NCBI GenBank assembly: GCA_001783065.1 | Contig: MFQN01000004.1 | Coordinates: 22,836-86,835 of the forward strand | Direction: 5' to 3' | Length of the DNA: 64,000 bases | Source: Candidatus Magasanikbacteria bacterium RIFCSPLOWO2_12_FULL_43_12 | Lineage (GTDB): Bacteria > Patescibacteriota > Patescibacteriia > Magasanikbacterales > UBA922 | Shown here: positions 1,775 through 31,232 of the stretch, piece by piece | Layout of the letters: every line of letters starts with the position of its first letter | Numbering within the stretch: position 1 is the first letter of the stretch | The notes under the pieces: model-generated | Told to the model about the DNA's origin: nothing | The model's input: the letters and a program-made list of their open reading frames with translations, nothing else | Database searches by the model: none | Translations under genes and position numbers: made by a program

Positions 1775-2097
1775 TTAAAAATTATCCGCCCAATCAGGCT
1801 ATCTATAGTATAGGCTAAAAAGAAAAGCGGGGCAACCCGCTTGTCCACATGTCTGGTTTTCCATCATCCTGCCGCCACTCGCGGCAAGAATAAAAAAACA
1901 GACACCAACAGCGCGATGCCTGCCAACAAGTAATAATAAACCAAAAAAATCGCGGAGTTTGACTGGGGCTCCGCCCCCGTATTTTTGTTTCGCATATTTT
2001 TATTTTGATTTTTGATTAATTACATTATTTTTATGTAATCAATGTTAATAGTATAGCACAAATTTGACCTTTTGTCAATAGTGTCGTACAATATAAT

Positions 2098-2209
2098 ATG
2101 CGAACTTACGAATACTTACGAAATTACGAACTACGAAACATGGCTTCGATCAACGTTTTTTCTAAATTTTCGTAGTTCGTAATTTCGCACCCTTTTCGTA
2201 TGTTCGCAT
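2098..2209. repeat. gene-less inverted-repeat element, ACGAA family
   Basis: Arms 2098-2138 and 2168-2209 match the arms flanking the GxxExxY gene at 16.4-17.0 kb; ends immediately before the Xer start codon. Confidence 0.85.
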
Positions 2210-3175
2210 ATGACCAAGACTCTTAGCAAATACCTCATCGACTTCCTGGAATATTTGGAAATAGAAAAAAACCGCAGCCAGCAGACGGTGCGGAATTATG
2301 ATTTTTATTTAAAAAGATTCATTGGTTGGTTTGGCGACAAAAGTCCGAAAAAACTGGAAGCGGAAAATGTGCGTCAATATCGCCTCTGGTTAAACCGGCT
2401 GGCTGACGCGCATGGGGATTCTTTGAGAAAAAACACACAAAATTATCATTTGATTGCTTTGCGTTCGTTTTTGAAATATCTAGCCAAACGCGATGTGAGG
2501 ACTCTGGCGGCGGAAAAAATTGAACTGATGAAAATGCCGGACCGCGAAGTAAGTTTTTTGGAAGGAAGTGATTTGAATAGACTGTTGGAAGCACCCTTAG
2601 CGAATAAGATACAAGATACAAACAACGAGACACAAACGACCGGAGATGCGGTATTGATTAAATATAGAGACAAGGCGATATTGGAGATGTTGTTTTCCAC
2701 CGGGTTGCGCGTGTCAGAGTTGGTTGGGTTAAAAAAAGATAAAGTTAATCTGGAAAAAGAAGAGTTTACCATCATGGGTAAAGGCAGAAAATCCCGCGTA
2801 GTTTTTTTGTCAGAGCAGGCGAGATATTGGCTGAAAAAATATTTGGAAACAAGGCAAGATATGAATCAATATTTATTTGTGTCGCATGATAAAAGAAGCG
2901 GCAAAACATTGGAACAGCCGCTGACGCCGAGATCGGTGCAGAGATTGGTGCAAAAATACGCGCGCGCGGCGGGAATTACTAAGCCGGTAACACCACATAC
3001 TTTGCGGCATTCCTACGCGACGGATTTATTGCAAAACGGCGCGGATATCCGCAGCGTGCAGACTATGCTTGGACACTCGTCAATTACCACCACGCAAATC
3101 TACACGCATATCACTGATAAAGAGCTGAAAAATATCTATAAAAAATTTCATGGCAAACAGAGGGGCAACAGTTGA
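2210..3175 (+). CDS. XerC/XerD-family tyrosine recombinase
   Basis: N-terminal SAM-like domain; TGLRVSEL, GKG, HTLRHSYATDLL, LGHS, TTQIY catalytic motifs. Confidence 0.93.
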   Translation: MTKTLSKYLIDFLEYLEIEKNRSQQTVRNYDFYLKRFIGWFGDKSPKKLEAENVRQYRLWLNRLADAHGDSLRKNTQNYHLIALRSFLKYLAKRDVRTLAAEKIELMKMPDREVSFLEGSDLNRLLEAPLANKIQDTNNETQTTGDAVLIKYRDKAILEMLFSTGLRVSELVGLKKDKVNLEKEEFTIMGKGRKSRVVFLSEQARYWLKKYLETRQDMNQYLFVSHDKRSGKTLEQPLTPRSVQRLVQKYARAAGITKPVTPHTLRHSYATDLLQNGADIRSVQTMLGHSSITTTQIYTHITDKELKNIYKKFHGKQRGNS

Positions 3176-4124: not shown

Positions 4125-4609
4125 GCGTCTCCCCCCTACGAAGGGGAGAACAAGGGGGGTGTTCGCCAATCGCGGCTCACTTGTGTGGTGTTTGAAAATC
4201 GATAATATAATTTTCTATTTCTACTAATATACTTTCTAAATCCTCCCTCACCCGCTCGTCATCAAACCGCAAAACCGTTAAACCCAAATCTTCTATATAA
4301 TCCACCCGTCTCCTGTCATACGCTTCTTTCCCCTCGTGGCTGATGCCGTCTATTTCAATAACTAATTTTAATTCAAAACAAAAAAAGTCGGCAATGAAGT
4401 TACCGATTGGCTTCTGTCGCATAAACTTGTAACCTTGAAGGCGTCTATTTCTTAAACAATGCCACAACATCCGTTCAGCATAAGTGCGGCCTTTGCGTCG
4501 CAATTTACTGGCATATGATTTTAACTTGGGGTTGTATTGTATTTTCATGGTAGTGGTTTTGACACGAGCGAACACCCCCTCTGTCTCCCCCTTCGTAGGG
4601 GGAGGACGC
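4125..4609. mobile_element. inverted-repeat-flanked DUF559 cassette 1
   Basis: ~42-bp GC-rich arms 4125-4166 and 4568-4609 are imperfect reverse complements enclosing the ORF; mobility is inferred. Confidence 0.6.
4177..4548 (-). CDS. DUF559 (Vsr-like) endonuclease domain protein
   Basis: 'AERMLW', 'KFMRQKPIGNFIADF', 'LVIEIDGISH', 'DRRR', 'GLTVLRF'; start moved to MKIQYNPK. Confidence 0.9.
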   Translation of the reverse strand: MKIQYNPKLKSYASKLRRKGRTYAERMLWHCLRNRRLQGYKFMRQKPIGNFIADFFCFELKLVIEIDGISHEGKEAYDRRRVDYIEDLGLTVLRFDDERVREDLESILVEIENYIIDFQTPHK

Positions 4610-4700
4610 GCGCTCACTATTTATATTTTTAAATAGACTTTCAATTGACAAAAGAAAAAAAATTTAATATAATAGTCGCGTTTTATTAAGGAAGCATTTG

Positions 4701-6154: not shown

Positions 6155-6530
6155 CTATTTTCCTGCTTCTTTGCTTTTCTCTAAGCCGTTTATCAGACTC
6201 CACAGCATCGCCCCCACTTCGTCAAGGAGGCCCATTGTCTCTTGGTACTCTTTCTGGTTTATCCACTCTCTCTTTTAAACAGAAAAATATTAAATATTTA
6301 CACTCCTTACAAGAACCATACGCGGTTTCAAAAAACTGTATCTTTACTCCTGTCTTAAACCGCGCATGTCCCTCAACAAAATTTAACATTATTGAAATTA
6401 TTGCTCTTCTCAACTGGCTGGTGATGCCATAAATCTCTTCACGGGGAAACTTTTTTGTTAAATCATATACCAACATTATCAAATCGTGCGCTTTCCTTTT
6501 AAAAATTACGCCCATCCCGTCATTTCCCAT
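6155..6530 (-). pseudogene. four-helix-bundle protein (23S-IVS/Avd-like family), frameshifted
   Basis: 'TKKFPREEIYGITSQLRRA...NFVEG...AYGSCKE'; the family-like C-terminus WINQKEYQETMGLLDEVGAMLWSLI is in another frame after the AG run at ~6266-6276; stop at 6155. Confidence 0.8.
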
Positions 6531-7756: not shown

Positions 7757-8377
7757 TTCCCTCCTCGGAGGAGGGCGAGGGAGGTGTTCGCCAACCTTCG
7801 CGAACACACCCCCTGCCCCTCTCCGAGAGGGGAAGTTACGAGTTCCCTCCTCGGAGGAGGGCGAGGAAGGTGTTATCCCTCTTTATGATGTTTAATCCAA
7901 TCATTAATAACTTCCCACACACCTTCCATATGACACTTAACTTGGTTCTCGGTAAATCGTAAAAACTTTATATCATTGCTTTCTAAAAACTTTTGTCTTT
8001 GGTTGTCGTAATGAATTTTTCCATCATGACTTATGCCATCCACTTCAATTGCCAACATCAGTTCGGAACAAAAAAAGTCTACAATATAGCGATACAGCGG
8101 TTTTTGACGGTGAAATTTATAACCCTCCAATTGTTTGCCACTTAAGTATTTCCACAAAAGAATTTCGGCCAGTGTAGAATTTAAACGCAAATTTCTTGCC
8201 CGTTCTTTCAGTTTCGGATCGTAAGGAATAAATTTTTTTATCATATTTTTTACCCCAGCGAACACACCCCTTGCCCCTCTCCGAGAGGGGAAGTTACGAG
8301 TTCCCTCCTCGGAGGAGGGCGAGGGAGGTGTTCGCCAACCTTCGCGAACACACCCCCTGCCCCTCTCCGAGAGGGGA
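7757..8377. mobile_element. REP/BIME-like cluster enclosing DUF559 cassette 2
   Basis: Identical 77-bp units at 7757-7833 and 8301-8377, built from alternating inverted CCCTCCTCGGAGGAGGG / CCCCTCTCCGAGAGGGG hairpins. Confidence 0.65.
7873..8244 (-). CDS. DUF559 endonuclease domain protein
   Basis: 'STLAEILLW', 'KFHRQKP', 'YIVDF', 'LAIEVDGISH', 'FLRF'. Confidence 0.9.
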   Translation of the reverse strand: MIKKFIPYDPKLKERARNLRLNSTLAEILLWKYLSGKQLEGYKFHRQKPLYRYIVDFFCSELMLAIEVDGISHDGKIHYDNQRQKFLESNDIKFLRFTENQVKCHMEGVWEVINDWIKHHKEG

Positions 8378-9659: not shown

Positions 9660-10245
9660 GAGACCTCATCCTTTGTCCTTCTCCTACGAGGAGAAGGAAA
9701 CCGCCCACTTCCTCTCTCCTCGTAGGAGAGGCGGGGTGAGGTCTCAACGGGCGTGTGTTAATTCCGCTATTTTTGTGTTAATAACTTTTAAGACTGTCTC
9801 TGCGTTATAAATGCAATCTTCATTCATTACTCTCATTATATTATATCCTTGTTTTTTAAGCCACGCTTCGCGCCGATTGTCATATTCAATTTGATCGTTA
9901 TGTATTCCACCGTCAACTTCAATTATTAACTTTAATCTGTGGCAGTAGAAATCAACCACAAAACCGCCGATACTTACTTGCCGTCTGAATTTGTAATTTA
10001 ATTCGCGATTCCGTAGTAATTGCCACAACGCATACTCCCCATCAGTAATATCCCGACGAAGCGACCGACGGCGGCGTTTGAGATAATCGCTTGGACGATT
10101 CCTGTCCCGAGGTTCGGTGGTTTTATTAGCTGGCATGTTCTATTTATGTCAGTTCCGATGAGACCTCATCCTTTGTCCTTCTCCTACGAGGAGAAGGAAA
10201 GTGATTGGAGACCCTCTCCTACCTCCCCCTACAAGGGGGAGGGCT
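9660..10245. mobile_element. repeat-flanked DUF559 cassette 3
   Basis: Perfect 41-bp direct repeat 9660-9700 / 10160-10200, with an inverted arm at 9709-9744. Confidence 0.6.
9744..10136 (-). CDS. DUF559 endonuclease domain protein
   Basis: 'TDGEYALW', 'KFRRQVSIGGFVVDFYC', 'IEVDGGIH', 'DNRREAWL'. Confidence 0.9.
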   Translation of the reverse strand: MPANKTTEPRDRNRPSDYLKRRRRSLRRDITDGEYALWQLLRNRELNYKFRRQVSIGGFVVDFYCHRLKLIIEVDGGIHNDQIEYDNRREAWLKKQGYNIMRVMNEDCIYNAETVLKVINTKIAELTHAR

Positions 10246-11544: not shown

Positions 11545-12011
11545 AATTTTCAATTTTCAATTTCTAATTTTCAAACAATTTTTAATGAATTAATTTTTAA
11601 TTCCGCCGTTTTTGCGTAATGATGAAGAAATCTTATTGAATATCAAGGTCAGTTGATGTGCTTCGCTCCATAGCGGTCTTAATGTGGCTTTCAATTCTGT
11701 GTTTGTCGTTGCCAGCATCTCCAGCCAATACTTTGTTTCCTGAATTTCTTTGCGGCAGATAAAAATTTTATTTGCAAAATCTTTACGTGAGCTGGCCGCG
11801 TTCGCTTCGCAATAATTAGCCGCCACACTGGTTACTGATCTCCCTAATTGAATGATAATATTTCGATTTAAATCTTTAATTTTGATGGTGGCTAACAGTG
11901 CCATGACATCTTTACTGAATTTTTTAGTTCTTCCCTCCAAATCATACTGCATAATTGATTAATTCGGTAATTGAAAATTGTTTGAAAATTGGTAACTGAA
12001 AATTGAAAATT
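11545..12011. mobile_element. inverted-repeat-flanked four-helix-bundle cassette (AATTTTC family)
   Basis: 42-bp arms 11545-11586 and 11970-12011, 4 mismatches. Confidence 0.65.
11590..11952 (-). CDS. four-helix-bundle protein
   Basis: 'DLEGRT', 'QLGRSVTSVAANYCEA', 'SRKDFANK', 'KEIQETKYWL'. Confidence 0.9.
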   Translation of the reverse strand: MQYDLEGRTKKFSKDVMALLATIKIKDLNRNIIIQLGRSVTSVAANYCEANAASSRKDFANKIFICRKEIQETKYWLEMLATTNTELKATLRPLWSEAHQLTLIFNKISSSLRKNGGIKN

Positions 12012-13789: not shown

Positions 13790-13963
13790 ACCTCCCCTCT
13801 CGAAAAAGGGCGGGTTGTAAATTCCCTCCTCGGAGGAGGGCGCGGGAGGTGTTCGTCAACACTCGCGAACACACCCCCTGCCCCTCTCCGAGAGGGGAGG
13901 TTACGATTGTTGTGTTTATTTTCGTAGTTCGTAATTTCGTATTCTTTTCGTATGTTCGCACAT
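13790..13963. repeat. GC-rich REP-like pair plus a solo ACGAA-family arm
   Basis: The ~13822-13898 unit resembles the 77-bp unit at 7757; 13920-13963 is an ACGAA-family arm. Confidence 0.8.
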
Positions 13964-15048
13964 CACTTTATCCCTCTAAACTCCGTATTCACATTCAAAA
14001 TTTCCAGCATCAAATCAATCGCCGCGTAAGCGACCATGGCGACCACGAGTCCGAGCGCGGCCGCGATCATTGTTTTCTTCCCGGTCTCCACCATTTCCGC
14101 GTTGCCCATAGAGACAATCATCTTGAAACCGCCATAAACGAAAAACGCGAATGCGAATGTGCCTAAAATCGCGAACATGCCGCTGGCGAAATTTATTATT
14201 AATTCCAATAAATTATTCACACTCCGGCAAGTCCCGGAAAACGCGCAGTCAGGCAAAGCGCCAGCATAGTCCTTCGGTTTTCCGTACTGGTTTTCTATCC
14301 AAGCGTCAACGGTGGAGGTGGTCTGCACCGGCGAAACGCCGGTGACGGAAAAATATATACTTCCATCAAGAGTTTGTGATTCTACTCCAGCGACAGGAAC
14401 AGATGCCTTTACTTTCAATTCATAAACTTTTGTTATCAGTTGTTCCGTTGATGTGTCCCAAACAATCTTTGCTTTTCCGCTTCCATCTTCATTTTTTAGC
14501 TCCGCGCTTAATTCCTCGCAATTAACGCATTTTATCTCAATTTCTTCTTTGGTGCCGACGGCCTCAATCTCCGCTGTGCCAATTTTCCCTTCTGTAACTG
14601 GGATCGGATTGCTTTTACTTCCTACATTTGTATTCCACTTCAAATTATACCATTTCACCCAGTCATACATTGTTGCTCCGTTAGTATCTGTGTAAGTTAC
14701 CGCATGATACAACTGACATTTTGGCGTGTCAGCTGTAACGCATACTTTTTTTTGATCAACCGCAAACTGTAAAAGATTTTCACAATCCTCTGTTTTTAAA
14801 AATTTGATAGTCTCATCAACATCCTTAAACGATATCTCTTCGGCCTCGGTTTCACCCAGCCCAATCTCCAATTCCTCCTCTGTATAATAACATCCTCCAT
14901 CTGAAGTCTGTTGAGAATATTTGCAATAACACTTATCACTATACGTCAAAAAAGCCGCGTTTTCTGAAGCATAAACATTTTGTACGTACACCAACACAAT
15001 CGCTAAACCAGCAATGATAGTGATTAGATATTTAATCTGATTCCGCAT
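13963..15048 (-). CDS. pilin-domain protein with large N-terminal Cys-containing extracellular region
   Basis: C-terminal 'YGGFKMIVSMGNAEMVETGKK...AAALGL' core preceded by CxxxGxC. Confidence 0.78.
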   Translation of the reverse strand: MRNQIKYLITIIAGLAIVLVYVQNVYASENAAFLTYSDKCYCKYSQQTSDGGCYYTEEELEIGLGETEAEEISFKDVDETIKFLKTEDCENLLQFAVDQKKVCVTADTPKCQLYHAVTYTDTNGATMYDWVKWYNLKWNTNVGSKSNPIPVTEGKIGTAEIEAVGTKEEIEIKCVNCEELSAELKNEDGSGKAKIVWDTSTEQLITKVYELKVKASVPVAGVESQTLDGSIYFSVTGVSPVQTTSTVDAWIENQYGKPKDYAGALPDCAFSGTCRSVNNLLELIINFASGMFAILGTFAFAFFVYGGFKMIVSMGNAEMVETGKKTMIAAALGLVVAMVAYAAIDLMLEILNVNTEFRGIK

Positions 15049-15057
15049 ACTATAAAC

Positions 15058-16431
15058 CTACATCGTCTGTTGAATTAACTTCGCCGCGTTGGTTAAAAGC
15101 TGGACATCTTTTTGATTCTCGCTCTTAGTGGAGCCTGACGGCTGTAAACTGTTGTGCAGCATTTCAGTAAATACTTTCGCGGCCGCTTCTTTATTTTTGC
15201 CTCTATACCAACTCTCGGCTTGCAAGATCGTGCTGACAAACGGTTTCAGCATCTCATTAGCTTCTTGATCTTTAATCTGCGAACGCAGAGGCGTGGGCCG
15301 CTTGGTCGCGTCAGTATATTTTTTTATATTATCCGGCGTAGTCATGAATCTTACGAAATCCCACGCTTCATCCTGATGTTTAGATTTTTTTACTACTGTT
15401 TCCAGCCAATAATTCGCCACATTCGTCGGCGAGGCTTCGTTCAGTTGCAAAATCGGCATAATTTCCAAATCCATTTGCGGAGCGCGGGCTTTGATAAGCG
15501 GGTAATCGTAGGCGAAACCGAAATAAAATACACTTTTGCCGGACGAGAAGTTTTCCAGCGCGTCTTTCATTGTTTCATTCCAGCTATAAACCTCTTTTGT
15601 CGGACGGGCGAAGTCGGTATAAAAACGCAACGCGACTAATGCCGGATGATTTGGTTTGCCGGCAGTGAGCCCGTCGGCAAAACTAACGCGGTTGCCCGAC
15701 GCCATTTTGGCTCCGCTTTGCGACATAAACAAAGAAAGAATATCAAACGCGCGGTCAATATTATTTCCGGTTCCTAAAGCAACGCCGGACTGAACAATGT
15801 CGCCTTTTTCATTGAACCGCGTGCTGGTCTTAACCGCGGCCATAAATTCATCCCAGGTCTTTGGCGCTTCCGCCACGCCGGATTTATCTAACAGTTCTTT
15901 ATTATAATATAAAGCCATGGTATCAAACGCGAGCGGTAGACCGTAAATTTTATTATCAATCACCGCGTCATCATAAACCGCGTTGACAAAGCTGTATTTA
16001 ATCGCGCTGACCGACGGCATTTTATTCTCTTCAATGGTAACGACCTGTTCTTTTGTATATTGACTCTTGATGTAAACATTCGCGACTTTCACGCTCGCGG
16101 GCATCGGCGCGAGCCAAGAAACATACCTGCGCAAATCGCGCGGACTCACAGAAATAATATCCGGCGGCACATCGTCGGCAAGAGCGCGCAATAATAATTG
16201 TTCAAGTTCCTCGCCGCGCACTTTACGGATGTTTATTTTTACATACGGCCTCTGCGCCTCGTATTCCTTCTTGAAAACGTCAAGCTGATCCAGATCATTA
16301 TAAACTGTCCAATAATTTAACTTGACCGGCTTAACCGCGGCGGCTTGCTCGGCGGAAAGACCCTTGCAACCGAAACCAAGCATGGTAACGAGGGTTAACA
16401 AAGAGAAAAGGGTTAGGTATTTTTTTAGCAT
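15058..16431 (-). CDS. extracellular solute-binding lipoprotein (family 1)
   Basis: Lipobox LGFG-C; 'PPDI', 'IYGLPL', 'LYYNKELL', 'PKTWDEF', 'AWDFVRFM'. Confidence 0.88.
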   Translation of the reverse strand: MLKKYLTLFSLLTLVTMLGFGCKGLSAEQAAAVKPVKLNYWTVYNDLDQLDVFKKEYEAQRPYVKINIRKVRGEELEQLLLRALADDVPPDIISVSPRDLRRYVSWLAPMPASVKVANVYIKSQYTKEQVVTIEENKMPSVSAIKYSFVNAVYDDAVIDNKIYGLPLAFDTMALYYNKELLDKSGVAEAPKTWDEFMAAVKTSTRFNEKGDIVQSGVALGTGNNIDRAFDILSLFMSQSGAKMASGNRVSFADGLTAGKPNHPALVALRFYTDFARPTKEVYSWNETMKDALENFSSGKSVFYFGFAYDYPLIKARAPQMDLEIMPILQLNEASPTNVANYWLETVVKKSKHQDEAWDFVRFMTTPDNIKKYTDATKRPTPLRSQIKDQEANEMLKPFVSTILQAESWYRGKNKEAAAKVFTEMLHNSLQPSGSTKSENQKDVQLLTNAAKLIQQTM

Positions 16432-16438
16432 ATTAATT

Positions 16439-16966
16439 ATGTGCGAACTTACGAAAAGAGTACGAAATTACGAACTACGAAAACTTGCTTTTTATTCAAT
16501 ACTCGTTAATCACTCTTTTTATAACCACGCCGCTGTGGGTAAAACAGGCGACGATGGCCAGCTTCAAATTCAATGCCACCAAATACTGTTTTGTTTGCGC
16601 TATCACTTGCGCCGACACAAACTGACCTCTCTTTAACTCTAAAACAATTTTATCATCAATCAAAAAATCTAAATAATATTTCCCTACCATGCTATCAAAG
16701 CACTTCAACGGCACATAATATTGCTCTTCAAATTTTAACGCTTCTTTTGTCAAACCGGCAGCCACGCCTTTCTGATAATAACTTTCCCTGTGTCCGCCGC
16801 CAAGTTGTTTAAACACCTCTATCAAAACTCCATTAATTTTAAAACTCAATTCCGGATACAGCAAGTCTTTCCTGCGCACAACATATTCCCTCCCCTGATA
16901 TGTCATAAATTTTCATTCTAAATTTCGTAGTTCGTAATTTCGTACTCTTTTCGTATGTTCGCACAT
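16439..16966. mobile_element. inverted-repeat-flanked GxxExxY cassette (ACGAA family)
   Basis: 44-bp arms 16439-16482 and 16923-16966 differ at one position. Confidence 0.7.
16496..16906 (-). CDS. GxxExxY protein (PD-(D/E)xK-like)
   Basis: 'LGGGHRESYYQ', 'YLDFLIDDKIVLELK', 'AQTKQYL'. Confidence 0.9.
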   Translation of the reverse strand: MTYQGREYVVRRKDLLYPELSFKINGVLIEVFKQLGGGHRESYYQKGVAAGLTKEALKFEEQYYVPLKCFDSMVGKYYLDFLIDDKIVLELKRGQFVSAQVIAQTKQYLVALNLKLAIVACFTHSGVVIKRVINEY

Positions 16967-16988
16967 TCCATAGTTCGCACATCCCACA

Positions 16989-17651
16989 TTACTCTACTGC
17001 AGAAAAGATGAACGATACTATCGTATAACTCGCGAAAATAACGAACAAACCGAGCGTGGCCCAGACGACGATGTTTTTCGCCTGCGTGGATCTTTCCGCG
17101 TTTCCGCCGGCCAGCATCCAAAGCACTCCGGCGTAGGCGAATAGCGCCAAAGCGATACTACCCATCAATCCCATCGCGACTTTGATAATATTGCCCAAAA
17201 CATTCTTTATATCAGTGTCCTCTAATGTATTTAGACCACTAACTGGTGGAATGTCCAATGCGGGCGCGGCATCAGAATCTTCGGCTGTATCTGTTTTTGT
17301 TATATTCCCCTCCCATTTGCAATTAAAATTCTCGCCATCTTTTTCTTGTAAAGGCAAGCAGCCAATCTCTGTTGTCTCTATGCTGAAACCTCCGCCTTTT
17401 TCACCATCACAATTACAGGCGGCTGTTTTTTCTTCTCCTGATGACCATTCACACTCATAACCAATATTACTGTCCGTCTCCGCGCAACCTTCCTCGTCAG
17501 CCGACGATTCCATGGTAGTCTTGCCGCCATCGCTGTCGGTGATTGTGCAAAAACACGTGCCATTATCCGCTAACGCTGTGTTTAATGAAAAAAACAAAAG
17601 ACCTGACGCTAAAAATATAAATAACAGTGAAAATAAAAACTTATTCTTCAT
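16989..17651 (-). CDS. TrbC/VirB2-like pilin with N-terminal Cys-rich repeats
   Basis: Two CxC...C...CxW modules; core 'YAGVLWMLAGGNAERSTQAK'. Confidence 0.8.
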   Translation of the reverse strand: MKNKFLFSLLFIFLASGLLFFSLNTALADNGTCFCTITDSDGGKTTMESSADEEGCAETDSNIGYECEWSSGEEKTAACNCDGEKGGGFSIETTEIGCLPLQEKDGENFNCKWEGNITKTDTAEDSDAAPALDIPPVSGLNTLEDTDIKNVLGNIIKVAMGLMGSIALALFAYAGVLWMLAGGNAERSTQAKNIVVWATLGLFVIFASYTIVSFIFSAVE

Positions 17652-20012: not shown

Positions 20013-20143
20013 ATGTGCGAACATACGAAAAGGATACGAAATTACGAACTACGAACAGCGAATTGGGGTAAAAAATAAAAATATATATATCATCATGATA
20101 TTTCGTAGTTCGTAATTTCGTAATTGTTCGTAAGTTCGCACAT
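20013..20143. repeat. gene-less ACGAA-family inverted repeat
   Basis: Arms 20013-20055 and 20101-20143; solo arm at 20770-20812. Confidence 0.85.
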
Positions 20144-20767: not shown

Positions 20768-20814
20768 ATTTTCGTAGTTCGTAGTTTCGTAATTGTTCGT
20801 AAGTTCGCACATAA

Positions 20815-25138: not shown

Positions 25139-26185
25139 CTACGCCGTCCCCACAAAAACATCCAACAATAACGACTGGTCGCCTTGGCCGGTCTTTGTTT
25201 TTACATCTAAATCCAACAAACGCTGATAAACGGTTTTTAATTTAGCCAAAGAATATTTTTTAACGAACACCAAAGACTTTTTTACGACAAACGGATGCAG
25301 ATTGAGTTTTTTCGCCAGCTGTTCACTCGGTAGATTATCTTCGCGGTCGTATAAATCCCGCAGTTCCAACAAAATTCTAAATTGCCGCAGAAGCATCGCA
25401 AAAACAAACTGCGCGTCCTCCCCCAATCGGTACTGCTCGCGAATCATTTTATACGCCTCTTTACTTCTCCCTGCCACCACCGCGTCAACGAGGTTGAAAA
25501 TGCTATCGTCGGCTTTTTCGTCAAGAAACAATTGAACATCGGCAAGCTCAATTTCGCGCCCTGTCATCGCGAGCCCCGGCACAGGGGCGTGGCGATCCAG
25601 CCCGTCGCCACTGGATTGCTTCGTCGCTCGTTCCTCGCTCCTCGCAATGACATATGCTATCAGTTGGTTTATAAGCGAATTCAGTCTCCACATATCCCCG
25701 CCAACATTCCGCGCCAAATATTGCACCGCTTGCTGGTCAATCTTTCCACCCCGTTCTTTAACTTCCTGCGTTATCCAACTATTTAATTTCACCCCAACCA
25801 ACAAATCAAACTTCTGACAAAACTTTTCTTTCGCCAAACACTTGAATAAATTTTCGGCTTCTTTGCCTTTGAATTTATCAGCGCCTTCCCAAAAAACCAA
25901 TACGGTCGCGTCCGACAAACTCTTCTTTTCTATTTTTTCTTGAAGTCCCGCCAACAAATCCTTATTTTTTGATAATAATAAATTTTCCAAAATAACCATT
26001 CGCTTCTCCGCCAAAAACGGCGTGGCTAAAATCTGCTCCCAAATTTTTCCATCTTCCTCTTTTTGACAATCCAAAATAGCCGCGTTATATCCACCCGGAT
26101 CGCGGTCTTTCTTGAACTTTTCTATCATTTTTTTTAGTTGTTGCCGGCTCCGGAACGTATCCGCGCCGTAGAGGAATATGATCAT
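25139..26185 (-). CDS. holA: DNA polymerase III delta subunit (with in-frame repeat insertion)
   Basis: 'MIIFLYGAD', 'PFLAEKRMV', 'IFNLVDAV', 'LHPFVVKK', 'DVKTKTG'. Confidence 0.9.
   Translation of the reverse strand: MIIFLYGADTFRSRQQLKKMIEKFKKDRDPGGYNAAILDCQKEEDGKIWEQILATPFLAEKRMVILENLLLSKNKDLLAGLQEKIEKKSLSDATVLVFWEGADKFKGKEAENLFKCLAKEKFCQKFDLLVGVKLNSWITQEVKERGGKIDQQAVQYLARNVGGDMWRLNSLINQLIAYVIARSEERATKQSSGDGLDRHAPVPGLAMTGREIELADVQLFLDEKADDSIFNLVDAVVAGRSKEAYKMIREQYRLGEDAQFVFAMLLRQFRILLELRDLYDREDNLPSEQLAKKLNLHPFVVKKSLVFVKKYSLAKLKTVYQRLLDLDVKTKTGQGDQSLLLDVFVGTA
25563..25651. repeat. REP-like palindrome inside holA
   Basis: gtcatcgcgag...ggattgcttcgtcg...ctcgcaatgac; same family as 7037-7130. 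Confidence 0.85.
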
Positions 26186-26188
26186 AAT

Positions 26189-26528
26189 AGCCCACTAATT
26201 GAGCGGCCACTAATAAAACTAATTTGCCACCCTCTTAGATTTTATTCCGTTCTACGATCGTGTTTTCAACCACAAAATCAATAAAATACCTGCCCATCCG
26301 CCTGCCATTATACATCAATACGCATTTTTGCTCTTTTTTATACAACTTTTTTCTATCTAACAGTTCCATCTCGTATGCTCTTTGATAATATTTCTCTTGA
26401 TAACCAAAACCCAATCTATTACTGACATTAAAAGCTAAACCTACCAACTCATAGCTTAATTCCGGATACAAAAGATCACCCTCCTTATTCATATTGGTGG
26501 CAATTAGTGGTCGCTTAATTAGTGGGCT
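26189..26528. mobile_element. inverted-repeat-flanked GxxExxY cassette 2 (CACTAATT family)
   Basis: 26-bp arms 26189-26214 and 26503-26528, 2 mismatches; solo arms at 28493-28528 and 47323-47388. Confidence 0.6.
26235..26492 (-). pseudogene. truncated GxxExxY protein
   Basis: 'LGFGYQEKYYQ', 'FIDFVVENTIVE' then stop; lacks the C-terminal third seen in the 16496 paralogue. Confidence 0.75.
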
Positions 26529-26529
26529 G

Positions 26530-27135
26530 TTATTTCAACTCCCCCCACCTTTTCCCCACACCGTCTTGGGGGGTATATTTCCGCAGAGATGGAAACGCTT
26601 TTAAAACCAAAACATACAAAAACACAACGACGGCCGGAATCACCAACATAAAAGAAATGGCCAGCCAAATAAACTGATAATTCTTCCTCACATAAAACAA
26701 ATAGCCAACCCCAGCGCCACAACTCATTGCGGCAAACATAATTAAAAGCGCCGACGACGCAAAGCTGTCCAAGACGAGTTTGCCAAAAACAGTGCGGCCT
26801 TCTGAAAGAACAATTGAATTAAGCAGGTTGCTTAACAGGAAGAACAACAAGACAAAAAAGAAAACCTTAACAATTTTGATGGTAAACTCAAAAATCTGTA
26901 GCGGCACCGAAAAATCATCATATTTTGTCAGTACTCGAGAACGACGAACAGCGATGATAAAACCCAACAATGGCGAAATTATGACCTGAAAACTGCGAAG
27001 TATTATAATGTCCATCCACCCATCTCTGGTGTTCCCCATCCAAAATGCCCCGAGACTCCAAAATTTTGTGGCGCCAGTAGTCCGGTTGTCCGCTGCAGTA
27101 AAACTTTTATTCCAAAATAATTTTATAACTTTCAT
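26530..27135 (-). CDS. hypothetical membrane protein
   Basis: About 4 hydrophobic segments. Confidence 0.55.
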   Translation of the reverse strand: MKVIKLFWNKSFTAADNRTTGATKFWSLGAFWMGNTRDGWMDIIILRSFQVIISPLLGFIIAVRRSRVLTKYDDFSVPLQIFEFTIKIVKVFFFVLLFFLLSNLLNSIVLSEGRTVFGKLVLDSFASSALLIMFAAMSCGAGVGYLFYVRKNYQFIWLAISFMLVIPAVVVFLYVLVLKAFPSLRKYTPQDGVGKRWGELK

Positions 27136-28365: not shown

Positions 28366-28526
28366 ATGATATAAAAATTAAACACGCACAAAATCTGCGT
28401 GCATTGTTTTAAATAACAAAAAGTTCTGCTCATATTCTATCATGACGCGCGCTTTTTGTGAAACTAAAAAATCAGTGGTTTGCCTTATTTATATTAGTGG
28501 CAATTAGTGGTCGTCAAATTAGTGGA

Positions 28527-31232
28527 CTATAATTTCAAACCCCCCCACATCTTTCCCACACTTACACGCGCCTCCACCGGCACGTTTAATTTTACCACAT
28601 TCTCCATCGCGTCTTTTACTAATTTTGATGCTTCTTTTTCCAAACCCTTCTTAACCTCCAATACCAATTCATCGTGCACCTGCAAAATCAATCTCACATC
28701 GCTCTCGGACTTTATAGACTTTATGACTTTATGGACTTCAATCATGGCGAGCTTCATCAAATCCGCCGCTGTGCCCTGAATCGGCATATTGATCGCCATC
28801 CGCTCGCCGGCGGAACGCAGTTGAAAATTATCGGATTTTAATTCCGGAATATATCGCCGCCGGCCAAATAGCGTTTCAACATAACCTTCTTTCTTGGCAA
28901 ATTCTAAAGTTTGGTCAATGTATTTTTTCACGCTGGAGAATTTTTCAAAATATTTTTTTATAAAATCTTTCGCCTGCCACTGTGGCATTTTTGTTCGCCA
29001 TGCCAACCCGTAAGAACCCATGCCGTACAACACGCCGAAATTCACGGCTTTCGCCGCGTAGCGCATTTCTTTCGTTACTTTATCTAATGGGACATCATTG
29101 ATCGCCGCGGCGGTTGCTTGGTGAATATCCTCTCCGCGCTTGAACACTTCAATCATTGTTTTGTCTTTGGCCAATGACGCGACAATGCGTAATTCAATTT
29201 GAGAATAATCCGCCGCGATTAAATTGTTCCCGGCTTCGGCGACAAACGCGTTGCGAATTTCTTTGCCTAAATCAGTGCGAATCGGAATATTCTGCAAATT
29301 CGGTTCAGAGCTGGAAAGCCGTCCCGTGGTTGTTACCGCTTGATTAAAAGTCGTATGAATACGACCGGTTTTTTTGTTTACAAGCGTTGGCAAAACATCA
29401 ACATAAGTATTCTGCAATTTCGCCAATTCGCGATAATCGCGAATCATGCTGATAATGGGATGTTCGTCAATCAATTTCTCCAGTTCGGCGTCAGCGGTGG
29501 AATATCCGGTCTTCCCTTTTTTAATTTGTTCGCTCGGCAATTTTAATTTATCAAACAAAATATCGCGCAGCTGCGTCGGCGACGCGATATTAAATTCTTC
29601 GCCAGCCTCTTTTTGAATTTGTTTGTCAATTTTATTTATTTCTCCGGCGACATCTTTGGATAATTTTTTTAACACAACAGTGTCAATCGCGATGCCATTC
29701 AATTCCATCTCAGCCAAAACCGGTATTAATTTCATCTCCACTTTTTCAAACAAACCAAAATCTTCCATATCCGCCAGCTTTTTCTTTTGTATTTCGTAAG
29801 CTTTTAAAATCAGCTGTAATTCTTCGGCCACTTGTTTTGGATTAGCGCCAAACAAACTGCTTTGGTCTGATCCGCCCTGAATCTCCTGCCCCAGCTCGCG
29901 CAAAATAATGCTTTTTGCGTCATGGGCGCGGGTACTGGAGTTGATCAGGTAGGATGCGATCATGGTGTCAAACAGGTGAGCGAAGTCTGTAAAGTCTATA
30001 AAGTCGTAAAGTCTATAAAGTACTTTGATGAGTTGTTTGAGGTCGTGGCCAACGAGGATCTTGTCTTTTGAATAGAACACGGATTTAACGGATTGAACGG
30101 ATTTGGACGGATCAGAGAGAAAATAACCGGACGAGCCGACGACAAAAACCAATCCTAACAAGTCGCTGTTTAAAATGTCCGTCCCGCTCAAAATTTCCTT
30201 GCAGGCAAAAACATCCGCGCCATTTATCGCTTTCTCTAATTCACCAATGTTCTTCTCATCAATCTCAATCATTCTCATCTCGTTCTTTCTCGTCTTCGCT
30301 CCTACATCCTCCACCCTACGTCCTCCGCCCTCGCTCTCCCCGCCCGGCAACCTCTTAATCAACGAGAAAAACTCAAACTTCCTCAACAAATCAACCACGC
30401 TCTGTCGGTCAAAATCTTTCATCGCGCAGTCTTCCAGCTTAAAATCTAATCCAGGCACGTCTCTCACCACTGTCGCCAATTTTTTACTCATCATGGCGCT
30501 GTCTTTTCCATCTAAAAGTTTTTTAATCACGCCCTCTGTAAAAAACTTTCGGACTTCGGACTTCGGACTTCGGACTTGCGCGTATATCTCCATAATTCCG
30601 CCGATTTTCTCAATCAACTCCGTCGCCGTCTTTTCCCCAATCCCCGGCACGCCCGGAATATTATCCGACGCGTCACCGCACAAAGATTTGTAATCAACAA
30701 TATGTTCGGGCCCAAAACCATATTTCTTTTGGACTTCATCAATATCATACATCACAATATCGCTCATGCCTTTTCTTAGCGCGTAAACACTGGTGTCCTC
30801 ATCAACCAACTGCAGAAGGTCCATATCGCCGCTCACTACAATATTTTTCATTTTGATTTTTTCATTTTCAACTTTAGCCACGATAGTGGCGATAACGTCA
30901 TCGGCTTCGAAGCCTGCTTGTTTTAAAATCGGCAGACCGAACGCCTCAACAACTTTATGAACCAATGGAATTTGATCATACAGTTCTTGATCCGCTTTCA
31001 CCCGTTTGGCTTTATAACCATCATAAATTTTATCGCGAAAAGTTCCGCCGGCAACATCAAAGCTAACCGCCAAATAATCCGGTTTTAAATCTTTAATCAC
31101 TTTCAACAGCATTGAAGTGAAACCATACACCGCGTTCACCATCGTGCCTTTGACCATCATCGGCGGCAGGGCGTGGTAAGCTCTGTGTATTATTGCGTTG
31201 CCATCTATAATAACAAACTTTTTGGTATCCAT
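28527..31232 (-). CDS. polA: DNA polymerase I
   Basis: 5'-3' exonuclease 'IDGNAIIHRAYHA', 'GDASDNIPGVPGIG'; polymerase 'TGRLSSSEPNLQNIP', 'DYSQIELR', 'QVHDEL'. Confidence 0.97.
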   Translation of the reverse strand: MDTKKFVIIDGNAIIHRAYHALPPMMVKGTMVNAVYGFTSMLLKVIKDLKPDYLAVSFDVAGGTFRDKIYDGYKAKRVKADQELYDQIPLVHKVVEAFGLPILKQAGFEADDVIATIVAKVENEKIKMKNIVVSGDMDLLQLVDEDTSVYALRKGMSDIVMYDIDEVQKKYGFGPEHIVDYKSLCGDASDNIPGVPGIGEKTATELIEKIGGIMEIYAQVRSPKSEVRKFFTEGVIKKLLDGKDSAMMSKKLATVVRDVPGLDFKLEDCAMKDFDRQSVVDLLRKFEFFSLIKRLPGGESEGGGRRVEDVGAKTRKNEMRMIEIDEKNIGELEKAINGADVFACKEILSGTDILNSDLLGLVFVVGSSGYFLSDPSKSVQSVKSVFYSKDKILVGHDLKQLIKVLYRLYDFIDFTDFAHLFDTMIASYLINSSTRAHDAKSIILRELGQEIQGGSDQSSLFGANPKQVAEELQLILKAYEIQKKKLADMEDFGLFEKVEMKLIPVLAEMELNGIAIDTVVLKKLSKDVAGEINKIDKQIQKEAGEEFNIASPTQLRDILFDKLKLPSEQIKKGKTGYSTADAELEKLIDEHPIISMIRDYRELAKLQNTYVDVLPTLVNKKTGRIHTTFNQAVTTTGRLSSSEPNLQNIPIRTDLGKEIRNAFVAEAGNNLIAADYSQIELRIVASLAKDKTMIEVFKRGEDIHQATAAAINDVPLDKVTKEMRYAAKAVNFGVLYGMGSYGLAWRTKMPQWQAKDFIKKYFEKFSSVKKYIDQTLEFAKKEGYVETLFGRRRYIPELKSDNFQLRSAGERMAINMPIQGTAADLMKLAMIEVHKVIKSIKSESDVRLILQVHDELVLEVKKGLEKEASKLVKDAMENVVKLNVPVEARVSVGKMWGGLKL

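Follow-up and report, generated by a model that had tools for sequence, protein, structure and literature searches.

MITEs are defined by terminal inverted repeats, gene-less derivatives, a target-site duplication and an autonomous IS partner. Terminal inverted repeats, gene-less derivatives and a position beside coding sequences, which MITEs and autonomous IS show in the available part of PMC3733652, are also present in the cassette described here, in which a GxxExxY nuclease gene lies between two inverted arms. The cassette differs in that no target-site duplication was found and it has no known transposase family, in that solo arms predominate in the source genome, and in that arms replace other repeats. 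A further likeness is to REP/REPIN sequences with RAYT and to TIRtrons, for which the available sections of PMC3116915 and PMC3733652 describe an enzyme gene within its own inverted repeats, family-specific dispersed copies located beside or inside ORFs, and gene-less pairs able to fold into hairpins, all as in the cassette. However, the cassette enzyme is a PD-(D/E)XK nuclease and the RAYT enzyme an HUH/Y1 transposase, and the cassette arm is a phased array of direct units, whereas a REP is a short palindrome. Additionally, singlets outnumber doublets 5:1 in the source genome and show no stronger decay, contrary to the REPs in the available text of PMC3116915, whose singlets are more diverged and whose doublets predominate.

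Short phased repeats a few bases ahead of start codons, and reversed inside ORFs, are described in PMC4679880 as TAACTGA heptamers of Beggiatoaceae, Cyanobacteria and Bacteroidetes. They differ from the arms in unit sequence and in that the available text of PMC4679880 links no enclosed gene to them and contains neither "nuclease" nor "helix bundle". By analogy, the TAACTGA repeats may belong to the same class as the arms; no mechanism of spread is evident in the available text, and the cassette would allow ideas on how short phased repeats came to lie at start codons to be tested directly. The ORF-bearing rRNA intervening sequences (IVS; PF05635; PMC4990558, as far as the available text describes them) likewise have a small ORF, which occupies the loop of a long stem, and PF05635 family members occur with arms in the window. 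In contrast, the arms of the cassette are located in mRNA junctions and coding loops and enclose a nuclease gene, and the cassette itself lies between two protein genes, without an rRNA gene.

By the defining tests of the MITE, REPIN and IVS families, the feature lies outside all three. A published description of a nuclease-arm element was not found in the literature searched, outside which most subscription journals and supplements lie; the evidence on slot turnover and on single arms is new in this analysis. If GxxExxY mobilises its own arms, which is a provisional view, the cassette would be a mobile element of ~0.5 kb that fails the MITE, REPIN and IVS tests, and through it bacteria with small genomes would quickly reshape their gene junctions and protein loops.

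Anatomy and setting of the cassette

The window is the whole stretch of 64,000 nt that was analysed (G000:C4:22836-86835), and G000 is the source genome, of 1.05 Mb in 34 contigs and 99.6% complete. The cassette and its host genes are arranged as follows.

15058..16431, minus strand: solute-binding protein, host gene downstream of the cassette, with an ortholog in 38 of 41 genomes
16439..16482, plus strand: downstream cassette arm, made of five RCGAA units phased at 8, 11, 8 and 7
16496..16906, minus strand: GxxExxY gene, 136 aa, PD-(D/E)XK fold
16923..16966, minus strand: upstream cassette arm, differing from the downstream arm by one mismatch, with its outer end 22 nt past the stop codon of the pilin-like gene
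16972..16982, minus strand: extra partial outer end (the first 11 nt of the arm), placed after the stop codon of the pilin gene and before the complete arm
16989..17651, minus strand: T4SS pilin-like host gene, upstream of the cassette

The two arms are 44 nt each and 98% complementary, with the single mismatch that the first-pass annotation had described; its coordinates throughout are correct within 2 nt. The outer end of the downstream arm lies 7 nt ahead of the start codon of the solute-binding-protein gene. The flank inverted-repeat score of the cassette gene is 83, against a median of 16, and a score of at least 83 is reached by only 2 of the 971 ORFs of G000, the second of which coincides in its coordinates with a Y1 transposase gene. 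The RNA fold z-score of the cassette is -5.4, and the stem is present in the predicted fold. These values, with the reversed-pattern control described below, show that the arrangement did not arise by chance.

Additional genes with repeats of their own lie in the window, interleaved with its pilin-like array.

4177-4617, 7873-8265 and 9744-10136: three DUF559 genes with their own flanking repeats
6222-6530 and 11590-11952: two four-helix-bundle genes with their own flanking repeats

These are parallel cassette families on the same junctions.

Properties of the GxxExxY protein

The 136-aa protein matches TIGR04256 with 75.9 bits (cut-off 35) and PF13366 with 73.8 bits (cut-off 22), and the family motif is present in the region of residues 36-42, which places it in the GxxExxY family. 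These are the only two profile matches of the protein; none was found to DDE, serine, tyrosine or HUH/Y1 transposases. A GxxExxY gene is present in 54 of the 401 genomes of the phylum. GxxExxY/PDDEXK_3 (PF13366) is a widespread family listed as function unknown in the available text of PMC3424549, and in the accessible part of a paper on reverse transcriptases GxxExxY appears only incidentally, as a neighbouring gene.

In 97 aligned homologs chosen from the 150 listed, with fusions and fragments left out, E90 is invariant and G36, E41, D80, K92, Q104 and Y108 are at least 90% conserved; the fold and the E...D...ExK catalytic set are those of the PD-(D/E)XK group. The predicted structure (pLDDT 93) shares the PD-(D/E)XK core with its best fold matches, Cas4 SSO0001 (4ic1; Z 8.4, rmsd 3.0 over 99 residues), the BpuSI nuclease domain (3s1s; Z 8.4) and Hjc (1gef; Z 7.1), at identities of 11-18% only. 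The fold is generic, a Z of 8.4 being near the usual background. These scores of a modelled structure indicate the fold and not the substrate. T7 endonuclease I gives a profile match at E=0.09, and the fold comparison found no solved structure of a close relative.

A comparison of the G000 and G001 genes reveals a dN of 0.23 and a dS of 2.6 (dN/dS ~0.1), and two G000 GxxExxY paralogs of another clade differ by a dN of 0.021 and a dS of 0.174. In the tree, the G000 protein pairs with that of G006 (97/92), which belongs to another genus; the ACGAA arm unit is common to G000 and G006, and the same-genus G001 has a TGCGAA variant. An enzyme role of GxxExxY is likely, and the earlier proposal of this protein as the candidate enzyme of the system is a good one; the conserved catalytic residues and the covariation of arms and cassettes argue for it.

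Arm copies in the source genome

A genome-wide search with a 21-nt core, a count that the first-pass annotation had called for, reveals 21 arms at 18 sites in G000: one cassette, two empty pairs and 15 solo arms. The arms are built of five RCGAA-type units with spacing 8, 10-12, 8 and 7 nt. Both empty pairs fall within the window, which also holds two solo arms that had been noticed before.

2096..2211: empty pair, beginning right after a promoter-like site, its terminal AT overlapping the xer start codon
13920..13963, minus strand: solo arm overlapping the stop codon of the gene 13963-15048
20013..20143: empty pair with an unrelated spacer, 3 nt past a stop codon and 9 nt ahead of a start codon
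20770..20812, minus strand: solo arm 2 nt past a stop codon

The core search returns the pair 20013-20143 and both solo arms as they had been described, and the pair placed at 2098-2209 needs only to be extended to 2096-2211, its terminal AT having been omitted. The solo arm 13920..13963 is followed by a palindrome of the type that flanks the DUF559 genes. The inner flank TTCTAAAT that the cassette was said to share with a gene-less pair is common to it and the 2096 pair only, at 10 of 12 nt; the random-sequence rate of such a match is 0.0003, or ~1% after correction for 40 comparisons.

The adjacency of arms to start and stop codons also holds across the genome, with an outer end at most 9 nt from such a codon in 15 of the 18 intergenic arms; one of the remaining three lies at 22 nt and two are at promoter-like sites, as judged by eye. 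Three solo arms are in frame within genes (C4:10253, C20:28237 and C33:3163). Single arms make up 15 of the 17 non-cassette sites, and they carry 0.6 mismatches per arm, versus 0.5 for paired arms, and are thus no more decayed. The solo arm at G000:C34:5899-5960 is extended at its inner end by two further 7-nt units in tandem, and it supplies the stop codon of the upstream gene.

Covariation of arms and cassettes

Arm copies were compared in 41 genomes, in all of which (41/41) a reversed-pattern control gives 0. The G000 core motif occurs 21 times in G000, 6 times in G006, 5 times in G002 and not at all in the other 38. The G006 variant is found 25 times in G006, 0 times in G000 and once elsewhere, the G009 variant 18 times in G009 and once elsewhere, and G001 has 12 arms of its own variant and 3 ACGAA-type arms in 686 kb. 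Arms are therefore not equally abundant in genomes that lack the cassette clade, an outcome that the first-pass annotation had named as contrary to its view; abundance is found almost only alongside a resident matching cassette. Within G000, the three apparently unbroken cassette families have 19, 7 and 23 arm copies and the truncated GxxExxY gene has 1, beside which a diverged second arm copy is present. The G017 gene has two internal stops, and two of the 4 arm matches in that genome are its own arms.

Among GxxExxY loci in general (63 submitted, 61 with full flanks), inverted arms above the 95th percentile of cross-locus controls are present at 52 of 61. The more alike two proteins are, the more alike their arms tend to be (Mantel rho 0.33, p 0.0005, n=48), a value inflated by the non-independence of kin. 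A 14-nt pattern, short enough for the control also to give matches, is matched in 24 of 401 genomes of the phylum; a GxxExxY gene is present in 13 of these 24, versus 54 of 401 overall, and in 4 of the 5 genomes with at least 2 matches.

The arms thus constitute a cognate-specific repeat family, with exceptions in G002, in G014 and G009, and in G082. G002 has ~11 arms of the clade, and its 91%-complete assembly contains no cognate GxxExxY gene above 36% identity, the level of the best protein match. For the apparently intact G002:C35 gene, the 634 kb examined contain no arms but its own 2. Only 5 matches accompany the intact gene of G014, and the G014 pattern is matched 8 times in G009; G082 has ACGAA-type empty pairs without a GxxExxY match. 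Genes can be absent from draft genomes because contigs break at arms, as seen in other sequencing runs. The covariation could also arise if the cassette were only a template or founder copy. G000, G001, G006 and G009 provide natural cognate protein-arm sets for a comparison of cross-specificity.

Polymorphism of arm sites and exchange of repeats

The sites were compared with those of G001 and G002, same-genus relatives that are sisters at 86.6% and ~82% from G000. At the cassette junction, G001 has an empty pair of another arm family, G002 has a palindrome like those on either side of the DUF559 gene at 9744, and several more distant relatives have a short plain spacer. Sites are thus polymorphic between relatives, the absence of which would have counted against the idea of movement. 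For 14 of the 17 non-cassette sites the corresponding place in G001 was located, where the G000 variant is present at 0 of 14 and G001's own variant at the same place in 2 of 14; among 13 sites placed in G002 (634 kb), one has the same arm, one the first 11 nt, and two the TGCGAA variant. By eye, most of the remaining placed sites hold other repeat families. The 20770-20812 junction is occupied in G001 by an empty pair of G001's own variant. At C3:33862, G001 is empty, G000 has 45 additional bases (one arm), and G002 has one arm of another variant at the same base. Because relatives carry a different repeat or none at the arm sites, the feature is likely to be a selfish mobile element; it is real, and very likely mobile.

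Whole cassettes move, as revealed by the C32 and C8 cassettes of another clade, which are 95% identical and have the same upstream arm and different upstream DNA. No joint that skips 16439-16966, as expected of an excision product, is present among the 15 of 34 joints listed from contigs of four runs, and a metagenome pattern scan gave no strain-level empty allele in its 12 loci, 10 of which are the same genome (at least 99.9%) and 2 relatives; a scan of genome contigs gave only 3 loci.

A given slot may hold an arm of one family in one genome and of another family in the next, so that arms are exchanged for one another. In the xer gene (2210-3175 in the window; L127 in G002), one loop is filled by different arm families in G000, G001, G002 and G006, its length (15-33 residues in the 19 of 23 rows parsed) being too variable to show replacement. 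A loop of the C33 gene has 7 residues in G014 and G021, 21-27 in G000, G001, G002 and G006, and, by eye, ~24 in G012; the long loops are filled by different repeats, with the KF.KDED.A flank kept in G000, G006 and G012. The stacking of repeats is polar, a CGAA-type arm lying outer to a CAATTT-type repeat in 13 of 67 cases and inner in 0 of 67. With a crude repeat mask, a test for the reuse of slots gives 7/11 versus 59/301 in G001 (p=0.002) and 6/8 versus 90/251 in G002 (p=0.055), which is no more than suggestive of reuse.

Proposed mechanism and alternative explanations

On balance, we lean towards a mechanism in which a cognate nuclease binds and cuts the arm and host repair puts an arm, a pair or a cassette into tolerated slots. 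The cassette would be a minimal selfish element, in which inverted arms, each with five RCGAA units in phase, enclose a single PD-(D/E)XK nuclease gene. This view builds on what is observed, namely the anatomy of the cassette, the polymorphic sites, the exchange of repeats in slots, the covariation of arms and cassettes and the conserved catalytic residues. We infer the following order of events, from binding to repair: the GxxExxY protein, predicted to bind the phased units of its own arm variant, would cut at the outer end of the arm, after which host repair would place arm DNA (one arm, an empty pair, rarely a whole cassette) at a new site. Copies would persist in tolerated slots, be it beside a stop codon, a start codon or a promoter or within a protein loop that varies, and arriving arms would stack beside or displace older repeats of any family.

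A possible variant, which we put forward only tentatively, is that the unit of spread is a single arm that overwrites DNA: the nuclease would nick the target, in many cases a repeat already present or a site that briefly matches the outer end of the arm, and the arm would be copied in with the loss of ~40 target bases. A glycosyltransferase loop bears on this point. In 11 of 22 parsed orthologs (30 loci), G000 among them, the loop has 23 residues, and in G000 it is filled by the 44-nt arm; G006 has its own arm there in 22 residues, and G001, G002, G015 and G022 have other repeats in 24-36 residues. The loop is of native length despite the arm, and therefore native sequence was lost as arms entered. 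One-step overwriting is not thereby proven, because nested repeats in G001 show that insertion followed by deletion is possible, and such a two-step course, whose nested intermediates are seen in G001, is the plainer alternative. If true, overwriting would be a natural process resembling prime editing, and would explain the native-length loops and the exchange of an arm of one family for that of another; the same idea could be extended to the heptamer repeats that precede start codons in other phyla.

Under a further explanation, which we regard as unlikely, all arm families are moved in trans by one common machine, which may be a RAYT/IS200-type enzyme, a reverse transcriptase or host repair. 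The GxxExxY, four-helix-bundle and DUF559 genes would then serve as cargo, as templates or as specificity factors, and the cutting would be done by another enzyme. The arms around the four-helix-bundle genes have the same design as the GxxExxY arms, which is the strongest reason for caution on the enzyme role; the four-helix-bundle family is not known to have a nuclease activity. The occupation of the same slots by different families, the arms of G002 without a found gene, and two Y1 transposase genes located in G000 elsewhere than the cassette also argue for a common machine. However, the Y1 genes have unrelated palindromic flanks of their own, the catalytic residues of GxxExxY are conserved under purifying selection, and broken genes have few dispersed arms.

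The first-pass annotation had proposed autonomous and non-autonomous, MITE-like forms. A mobile family with gene-bearing and gene-less forms at polymorphic sites is indeed present, whereas the classic MITE model fits only in part, in view of the lack of an observed target duplication, the single arms at 15 of 17 sites, the exchange of arms at shared sites and the G002 arms without a gene. In its strict form, with the arms as terminal inverted repeats, the pair as sole mobile unit, GxxExxY as transposase and solo arms as decayed pairs, this explanation appears quite improbable. It would account for the inner flank that 2096-2211 shares with the cassette, for the duplication of a whole cassette (C32/C8) and for G001, where pairs predominate (4 empty pairs among 12 arms, with spacers related by eye); pairs are also found in G344 and G082. 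However, the search for target duplications that had been suggested gave none in the sequence bordering the arms, either of the cassette or of the two pairs. Moreover, G000 has 15 solo versus 3 paired sites, with solos equally conserved, a single arm of a different variant occupies one base in two species (C3:33862), the arm-bearing glycosyltransferase loop is of modal native length, and a DDE or HUH family match is lacking. The terminal AT of the G000 arms is AC in the G001 variant, and an overlap of 2-3 nt would fit the solo site C3:33862.

It is very improbable that the arms are immobile elements that the host selects at gene ends for regulation or mRNA structure and that gene conversion keeps uniform, since, although their outer ends hug start and stop codons, some slots are common to several genera and a regulatory role is proposed for the analogous TAACTGA repeats in the available text of PMC4679880, the same variant is kept at 0 of 14 orthologous sites in G001 and in full at 1 of 13 in G002, arms are also present in coding loops, and their abundance follows the resident nuclease cassette.

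Additional GxxExxY loci

One junction, which we take to be lemA-htpX from translations read by eye (L009, L010, L011, L068 and L292), carries differently armed GxxExxY cassettes in four genomes and a solo arm in G006. The names topA, secY, PEP synthase, lemA, htpX and the C20 glycosyltransferase are likewise presumptive identifications by eye. The orthologous cassettes L025 (G002) and L030 (G000) differ at the same position in both arms, and their sequences suggest that the two arms were homogenised in place. GxxExxY domains are fused to RuvC (3) and RuvX, and lie within or beside RecG, asparagine synthase, GatB and glycosyltransferase domains (proteins P0040, P0062, P0108, P0118, P0122, P0136, P0083, P0148 and P0138); whole cassettes may be in frame in essential genes. 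L066, an armed GxxExxY locus of 60% identity whose contig bears the title Gammaproteobacteria, is either a horizontal transfer or a case of misbinning.

A second GxxExxY gene in the window, at 26157-26561, is truncated. Its arm and the upstream gene end recur 2000 nt away (28483-28561; 79 nt, 84%), and the repeat brackets two ORFs without a Pfam match. The G002 ortholog of this gene is ~107 bases longer, looks intact and directly follows a polA-like end.
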